A DNA stretch of 64,000 nt, taken from Escherichia virus TH55. The position numbers were made by a program, and so were the translations under genes. Below the pieces are notes generated by a model, which saw only the letters and a program-made list of their open reading frames with translations, was not told the DNA's origin and searched no databases. Shown here piece by piece: positions 5,614-6,078 of the stretch; positions within the stretch are counted from its first letter, which is position 1, and every line of letters starts with the position of its first letter. The DNA lies in the sequence record MT446421.1. The stretch is one strand, 5' to 3'.

Positions 5614-6078
5614 TCATTCAGGCTCATAATCCACCACTATTAAATCAATATCAGGAGTAAACATGTCGATTAATTTAGAAACCTTTTCCCAATCTCCACC
5701 TGCAATACCACAACCAATGCGAGGAATGTAAATTACCGGTTTAAACAAAAGGGTTTCTGCTTGTAGATTTAATTCTATCATACAATTTACTAAAGCACCA
5801 TAATCAAGATTAGGGCCCGGTTCATATTGAGTGTACAAATTATAACACATACCAAACCCAGTAGGTTTATGTTTAAAAACAATAGACATATCGCCTAATT
5901 TATCACGAGAACCATATTCAGTGGTGGTTTTATCTATTTCTAAAACTTTTGGATAGGCCTTCGCCAACTGTCCAGCTACACCAGAACCCATTGTGTGGAA
6001 GCAGTTACAACCATGAGCAATAATATTGCCTTGAAGAAAGAGGGCGACGATATCGCCCTTAATATACTGGGTAATCAT
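5614..6078 (-). CDS. macro-domain-like protein (putative ADP-ribose binding/processing)
   Basis: 154 aa; GDIVALFLQGNIIAHGCNCFHTMGSGVAGQL resembles the macro domain N-terminal motif and glycine-rich loop. Confidence 0.45.
   Translation of the reverse strand: MITQYIKGDIVALFLQGNIIAHGCNCFHTMGSGVAGQLAKAYPKVLEIDKTTTEYGSRDKLGDMSIVFKHKPTGFGMCYNLYTQYEPGPNLDYGALVNCMIELNLQAETLLFKPVIYIPRIGCGIAGGDWEKVSKLIDMFTPDIDLIVVDYEPE

Follow-up and report, generated by a model that had tools for sequence, protein, structure and literature searches.

What does a phage gain from carrying a macrodomain of its own, and which ADP-ribose linkage would such a protein cut? The question is raised by a 154-aa open reading frame that runs from ATG to TGA at exactly 5614..6078 on the minus strand of the window, by which we mean the whole 64,000-nucleotide stretch of Escherichia virus TH55 (MT446421.1) analysed here; its product begins with MITQYIKGDIVALFLQGNIIAHGCNCFHTMGSGVAGQL. 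Positions 4400-7100 of the window are 100% identical to Escherichia phage UPEC07 (MW250787.1), a T4-like phage classified in Straboviridae, Tevenvirinae, Gaprivervirus. The gene in itself is unremarkable: it carries an annotation already, it belongs to a phage family with many members, and its T4 ortholog has a named anti-defence role. Our concern is what its fold, active site and relatives say about the substrate.

Gene string, annotation and expression signals

The gene, tk.4, belongs to a tightly packed string on the minus strand, regB-vs.1-vs-tk.4-tk.3-tk.2-tk.1-tk (Table 1). Its ATG overlaps the stop codon of vs (ATGA), its final 14 nt overlap tk.3, and the GAGGATT stretch upstream of it is identical in T4. 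An overlapping plus-strand ORF of 107 aa (5995..6318) has no support and was set aside. Concerning the neighbours, we note in passing that Vs.1 has a signal-like segment at its N-terminus and is 65% identical to T4 Vs.1, and that, in the HIDEN-SEQ screen of T4, vs showed the strongest depletion of any gene in minimal medium (bioRxiv 10.1101/2025.11.20.689424).

In the UPEC07 record the gene is already named 'macro domain-containing protein' (QUL77641.1), while other records use tk.4, 'phosphatase', 'Poa1p-like family protein' or 'macro-like domain protein', and the T4 record reads 'Tk.4; contains A1pp phosphatase motif'. RefSeq and PHROG_335, which the protein matches with an E of 1.7e-70, both label the family 'phosphatase'. 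Relatives found by tblastn occur in about 2,750 phage records spread over many genera. In two of these phages, Vibrio phages Brizo (L004, 2632-5659) and Gary (L009, 1629-4659), the homolog lies between Adps and Namat, the two genes of the NARP1 operons that reconstitute NAD+, and in Acinetobacter phage Aci01-1, a Saclayvirus (L005, 404-3974), it adjoins Namat; these homologs are 35-38% identical to the tk.4 protein, and the order Adps-macro-Namat corresponds to the recently described NARP1-AP pathway. As a separate matter, many product names in the deposited UPEC07 annotation look wrong, both at window positions ~1-4400 and generally: T4 'MobD.x' ORFs have been expanded into 'molybdopterin-guanine dinucleotide biosynthesis protein MobD', 'thioredoxin' recurs in long runs, 'thymidine kinase' appears a second time, and several small ORFs are called 'endoribonuclease'.

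A sigma-70 scan of positions 4300-9000 returned 14 sites against 14.9 expected. MotA-box-like motifs number 16 in the window, a count that 6 of 100 shuffles reach and that is thus within chance; one of them, TATGCTTCA at 6497-6505 (-) upstream of vs, was rejected, having no proper -10 at the right spacing. Because the promoter scans are at chance level, we make no claim on expression timing beyond the gene order common with T4. The terminator-like hairpin inside the start of tk.4 may serve to end or stabilise transcripts between vs and tk.4, or may be nothing more than a by-product of the conserved peptide KGDIVAL. T4 and QL01 (Dhakavirus) have the same bases, even at synonymous sites, and GoldenSnicker (Krischvirus) keeps the hairpin with a T.G to T-A change; in four other genera, represented by Kosakonia phage 305, a Karamvirus, Klebsiella phage Roth20 and Aeromonas phage AS-gz, it is lost.

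Table 1. Features of the tk.4 locus, in window coordinates
Feature	Position	Strand	Remarks
tk	4484-5056	-	same string as tk.4
three small ORFs	between tk and tk.4	-	same string
tk.4 / adfM ortholog, 154-aa single-domain macrodomain protein	5614..6078	-	stop codon included
second (diphosphate-binding) loop, residues 119-130, PRIGCGIAGGDW	5689..5724	-	A126 = TARG1 D125, Poa1p F152
NLYTQ, residues 80-84	5827..5841	-	Q84 in the catalytic Lys column of TARG1 (K84) and DarG (K80)
first ADP-ribose-binding loop, residues 22-36, HGCNCFHTMGSGVAG	5971..6015	-	H22, N25, G31-x-G33; replaces N-A-A-N...G-G-G of MacroD/Mac1-type
G+C-rich hairpin AGGGCGAUAUCGUCGCCCU, then U-rich tract	6041..6059	-	tk.4 codons 7-13; from terminator-like scan; fold z -2.05
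vs, valyl-tRNA synthetase modifier	6075-6434	-	upstream neighbour of tk.4
GAGG, putative Shine-Dalgarno-like element	6091..6094	-	12 nt upstream of tk.4 ATG, within the end of vs
vs.1, 180 aa	6437-6979	-	SLT (lytic transglycosylase) annotation
regB	6990-7505	-	same string

Fold, family and active-site make-up

The Pfam Macro profile (PF01661) matches residues 22-136 over profile positions 2-117 of 118 with 33.2 bits (E 5.6e-8), the gathering cut-off being 22 bits. A single-sequence search of the PDB returns BT1257 (8.8e-11), yeast Poa1p (1.5e-9), SCO6735 (4.5e-7) and the M. tuberculosis DarG macrodomain (4.3e-5), with TARG1 also among the matches. With a family profile of 62 relatives, the PDB E-values improve to between 1e-18 and 1e-10 (BT1257 1.4e-18, TARG1 2.8e-16, SCO6735 4e-15, Poa1p 7.3e-15, M. 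tuberculosis DarG macrodomain 2.1e-12). The AlphaFold2 model made on the family alignment (pLDDT 95.0, pTM 0.89) has the three-layer alpha/beta/alpha macro fold; its top Foldseek match is TARG1, and BT1257 and SCO6735 are the best PDB relatives by sequence and fold. From the Pfam, PDB and AlphaFold2 results, the tk.4 protein therefore belongs to the ALC1-like class (a term of the Ahel and Mikoc groups), together with TARG1, DarG, SCO6735, BT1257 and Poa1p. The macro-domain likeness that a sequence-only reading had seen at the N-terminus is thus borne out by profile, PDB sequence search and predicted structure alike. The protein is almost certainly a macrodomain ADP-ribose hydrolase, predicted both to bind and to hydrolyse.

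The same reading held that the canonical N-A-A-N is replaced by H-G-C-N, and this is correct: hhalign pairs IIAHGCNCFHTMGSGVAGQL with the 20-residue N-A-A-N segment of SARS-CoV-2 Mac1, so that H22-G23-C24-N25 occupies the place of N-A-A-N with the second Asn kept. The protein has both glycine-rich loops (G31-S-G33 and G122-C-G-I-A-G-G128) as well as N25; all of these are invariant or nearly so among the 62 relatives, and they align with their counterparts in Mac1, TARG1 and SCO6735. Fully invariant in these relatives are H22, G23, N25, C26, G33, A35, N80, Y82, Q84, P119, G122, G124 and W130. Residues 119-130 align with PRIGCGLAGG of BT1257 and SCO6735 and with PRIGCGLDRLQW of TARG1.

To locate the catalytic columns, the tk.4 protein was aligned with T4 Tk.4, BT1257, SCO6735, TARG1, two DarG macrodomains and PhiKZ gp104, the PDB sequences being recovered from HMMER alignments and gp104 from the methods of PMC13309987. 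H22, N25 and Q84 fall on H24, N27 and Q85 of SCO6735, so that the His24/Asn27/Gln85 trio of that enzyme is complete here; H22 also aligns with Poa1p H23. The column that carries the catalytic Lys in TARG1 (K84), in DarG (K80, within PTK) and in PhiKZ gp104 (PTK) is Gln in the tk.4 protein (Q84, within YTQ), in T4 Tk.4, in BT1257 and in SCO6735 (Q85), and this Gln is invariant in 62/62 family members. The catalytic pair of TARG1, Lys84/Asp125, is absent from the tk.4 protein, which has Q84 and A126 in those columns. By analogy, catalysis should follow the Gln scheme of SCO6735 and not the Lys scheme of DarG and TARG1.

SCO6735 is thus the instructive case. An orphan macrodomain, it clears the thymidine-linked ADP-ribose that DarT leaves on DNA more quickly than either DarG or TARG1 does, it protects both E. 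coli and Streptomyces against DarT, and it is inactive on guanine-linked ADP-ribose (PMC9411070). Its Q85A variant is inactive, N27S retains the fold but hardly any activity, and H24Y loses activity through disruption of the fold (PMC9411070). Lys34 and Lys89, the latter on a 'mobile loop', position the DNA, and K34E nearly abolishes activity on DNA (PMC9411070). The tk.4 protein has neither lysine, position 32 is Ser, and the extended 'mobile loop' after the Gln is absent, the segment comprising 8 residues against 13-14 in SCO6735 and BT1257 (5-6 shorter).

Orthology, synteny and the probable substrate

The protein is 57% identical to T4 Tk.4 over 153 of 154 aa without gaps, its slot between vs and tk.3 and the order of the whole string are the same in T4, and tblastn with macrodomain queries finds tk.4 as the sole macrodomain match in the whole UPEC07 genome. 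tk.4 is the Gaprivervirus syntenic ortholog of T4 tk.4 (adfM). Unusual divergence of tk.4 was considered as an arms-race sign and rejected, as its 57% identity to T4 falls within the 44-71% range of its neighbours (tk 71%, vs.1 65%, regB 60%, vs 44%), and there is thus no arms-race signal.

In T4, the role of the gene has been approached genetically. When a T4 transposon library was put on a DarTG2 host in HIDEN-SEQ, only tk.4 scored significantly; T4 with a clean deletion of it became sensitive to DarTG2, and the gene was named adfM, for anti-DarT factor Macrodomain (bioRxiv 10.1101/2025.11.20.689424). On plain E. coli K-12, T4 tk.4 is dispensable, DarTG2 being the one condition in which it scored; this evidence is genetic and from a preprint, in which removal of ADP-ribose from DNA is proposed by analogy (bioRxiv 10.1101/2025.11.20.689424). 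The knock-out of this 57%-identical protein lends support to the earlier suggestion, made from the letters of the window, that the gene product counters ADP-ribosylating host defence. T4 lacking adfA and adfN is fully resistant to DarTG2 (Johannesman et al., PMC11825919), whose authors predicted a further factor; adfN is gene 30.3, a NADAR that removes the guanine-linked ADP-ribose made by DarT1 (PMC11825919). In the PADLOC and NCBIfam libraries, DarG models are the only matches of the tk.4 protein.

By analogy with T4 Tk.4 and SCO6735, we consider the main role of the protein to be, probably, the reversal of DarT2 DNA ADP-ribosylation by removal of the modification from phage DNA, and we infer that both it and T4 Tk.4 cleave thymidine-linked ADP-ribose. 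In the scheme that we propose, tk.4 would be made from the tk-vs-regB string on the minus strand as a stand-alone ALC1-like macrodomain. In hosts with DarTG2, DarT2 would put ADP-ribose on thymidines in TNTC motifs of single-stranded phage DNA and thereby block replication. The phage macrodomain would hold the ADP-ribose between the G31-S-G33 and G122-C-G-I-A-G-G128 loops, while Q84, itself held by N25, would position the distal ribose for attack by water, as in the SCO6735 scheme; hydrolysis of the ribose-thymine bond would then free the DNA, and the protein would be, in effect, an orphan antitoxin. Since SCO6735 additionally blocks DarT by binding it (PMC9411070), protection without catalysis is also conceivable, and the phage protein may protect by binding the toxin.

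A precedent exists in the same genome: UPEC07 also encodes a homolog of gp30.3/AdfN, a NADAR enzyme that defeats DarTG1 by the same means. This homolog, Alt, ModB and ModA are found at 48606-49064, 51765-53825 and 162887-164106 of MW250787.1, all outside the window, and UPEC07 therefore has both known DarT erasers plus ADP-ribose writers of its own. Bacteria commonly defend themselves by having DarT toxins ADP-ribosylate phage DNA, and T-even phages would escape this by means of orphan 'antitoxin-like' erasers, AdfN for guanine and Tk.4/AdfM for thymine. The presence of both in this Gaprivervirus should help to predict its host range, which matters for the use of phages in therapy of uropathogenic E. 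coli.

Sequence alone does not reveal the substrate, because a 38%-identical Adpp with the same core acts on ADPR-1''-phosphate, and the tk.4 protein might accordingly be mainly an Adpp/Poa1p-like phosphatase of ADPR-1''-P, which RES-type NADases (aRES) make from NAD+. Gary Adpp converts ADPR-1''-P, the aRES product, to ADPR in vitro, and both the extended NARP1-AP pathway and the overcoming of aRES depend on it (Osterman et al., bioRxiv 10.64898/2026.01.28.702374). In favour of this, Gary Adpp (KNV71_gp137) is homologous by BLASTP (38% identity, E 6e-25) with the core residues kept, the 'phosphatase' label of PHROG_335 and RefSeq and the A1pp motif of the T4 record point the same way, and so does the position of homologs in the Adps-macro-Namat operons of Brizo and Gary and next to Namat in the Acinetobacter phage. 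On the other hand, the NARP1-linked homologs have a basic residue, Lys/Arg, at position 32 and keep an extended loop following the Gln, both of which the T-even clade lacks, and while Poa1p H23 and S30 correspond to H22 and T29, Poa1p F152 is replaced by Ala (A126). Furthermore, the only known phenotype of the T4 ortholog is DarTG2-specific, and tblastn (E up to 0.1) finds no Adps or Namat across the 170 kb of UPEC07; the phage is thus unable to rebuild such ADPR into NAD+, and a NARP1-AP role of tk.4 was rejected. Because the NARP1 genes are lacking and the loop and position 32 differ, we rank the Adpp function as a rival or a side activity and consider it unlikely as the main role. DarT2 erasure and ADPR-1''-P phosphatase activity are nevertheless compatible, not mutually exclusive, and the homology with Adpp makes a side activity on ADPR-1''-phosphate likely. 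More tentatively, with a probability that we would put as rather low although not negligible, the T-even Tk.4 clade could be a mechanistically distinct, broad-spectrum Gln-type eraser, short in the loop and lacking the lysines with which SCO6735 positions DNA, that acts on DarT2-modified DNA as well as on small ADP-ribose derivatives such as ADPR-1''-phosphate from aRES. If this is true, one 154-aa enzyme blunts two unrelated NAD-based defences, and anti-DarT2 activity has been recruited at least twice by phages, in a Tk.4 type and a PhiKZ gp104 type.

Two further proposals concern other ADP-ribose linkages and ADP-ribose-derived signals. The protein could reverse or tune ADP-ribosylation by Alt, ModA and ModB, all of which UPEC07 encodes, or clean RNA or protein modified by other host systems (CmdTAC); Glu/Asp-linked ADP-ribose on protein is indeed a further substrate of both TARG1 and SCO6735, and phosphate-linked ADP-ribose on RNA is one of TARG1. 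However, Alt, ModA and ModB make Arg-linked ADP-ribose, a product outside the known macrodomain substrates, and we know of no macrodomain that cleaves it. The sequence-only reading had likewise offered regulation of the phage's own ADP-ribosyltransferases, which finds no support here: Alt, ModA and ModB are encoded elsewhere, tk.4 is distant from the alt and mod genes, and nothing links them to it. As regards RNA, SCO6735, which has the closest characterised active site, was inactive in gel assays on 5'-phosphate- and 2'-OH-linked RNA ADP-ribose (PMC11833690), although the discussion of the same paper nonetheless calls it active on RNA phosphate ends. Given also that the T4 gene is dispensable on plain K-12 and scored with DarTG2 alone, we regard this set of roles as very improbable. 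We attach as little weight to the idea, which follows the general phage-macrodomain proposal of Iyer and colleagues, that the protein destroys or sequesters ADP-ribose-derived signals or by-products (Thoeris gcADPR, His-ADPR, O-acetyl-ADP-ribose). No experimental link supports the signal reading, the closest structural relatives are DNA or ADPR-1''-P enzymes and not signal-binding macrodomains, and the complete invariance of the catalytic site speaks for an enzyme and against a sponge.

Comparison with known macrodomains

The nearest system is T4 Tk.4, with which the window protein has in common the HGCNCFHTMGSGVAGQL, NLYTQ and PRIG-G-W motifs, the short loop and Ser32. The two differ at 43% of residues, e.g. 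GCGIAGGDW in the window protein versus GAGIGKGNW in T4, and in genus, Gaprivervirus versus Tequatrovirus; the DarTG2 phenotype is that of T4. Gary Adpp comes from the same phage protein family (PHROG_335) and has the same invariant core, but is encoded between Adps and Namat and has free ADPR-1''-phosphate as its substrate. Human TARG1 (OARD1), of the same class, also cleaves thymidine-linked DNA ADP-ribose, with catalytic K84/D125 where the tk.4 protein has Q84/A126. Streptomyces coelicolor SCO6735 (PDB 5E3B) and Bacteroides BT1257 (2FG1) have the same His, Asn and Gln trio, although they are bacterial and not phage proteins and only 26-30% identical to the tk.4 protein. Among other homologs, one in the bacterium Pelagimonas stands alone with no DarT nearby, and another is on a phage-like contig.

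DarG itself is more remote. The NCBIfam DarG equivalog NF048014 scores the tk.4 protein at 30.7 bits against a cut-off of 250, and the PADLOC DarG model gives it 30.8 bits over profile positions 4-145 of 329 only, compared with 132.9 bits for PhiKZ gp104. A DarG-type C-terminal DarT-binding domain and a neighbouring darT are both absent, the protein being a single domain flanked by vs and tk.3. DarG membership was rejected on these scores, far below the cut-off, and on the lack of the C-terminal domain and of the catalytic Lys (K80 in T. aquaticus); by analogy, the tk.4 protein would so work like the DarG macrodomain while standing outside the DarG family. PhiKZ gp104, which has been shown biochemically to remove DarT2-made ADP-ribose and is also named AdfM (Cell Rep 2026, PMC13309987), does have the catalytic Lys in PTK, as do the DarG proteins of T. 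aquaticus and M. tuberculosis, whereas the window protein has Gln. Orthology with it was also rejected: gp104 matches only DarG structures in the PDB, and its BLASTP match to the tk.4 protein is marginal (E 1e-3 over 33 aa). From the Lys/Gln difference, the BLASTP result and the PADLOC scores, it follows that T4 Tk.4 and PhiKZ 'AdfM' are not orthologous. AdfM is a name coined twice, independently, for macrodomains that are not orthologs of each other: the Gln-type T4 Tk.4 and the DarG-type PhiKZ gp104. At least two macrodomain lineages appear to have supplied phages with anti-DarT2 proteins.
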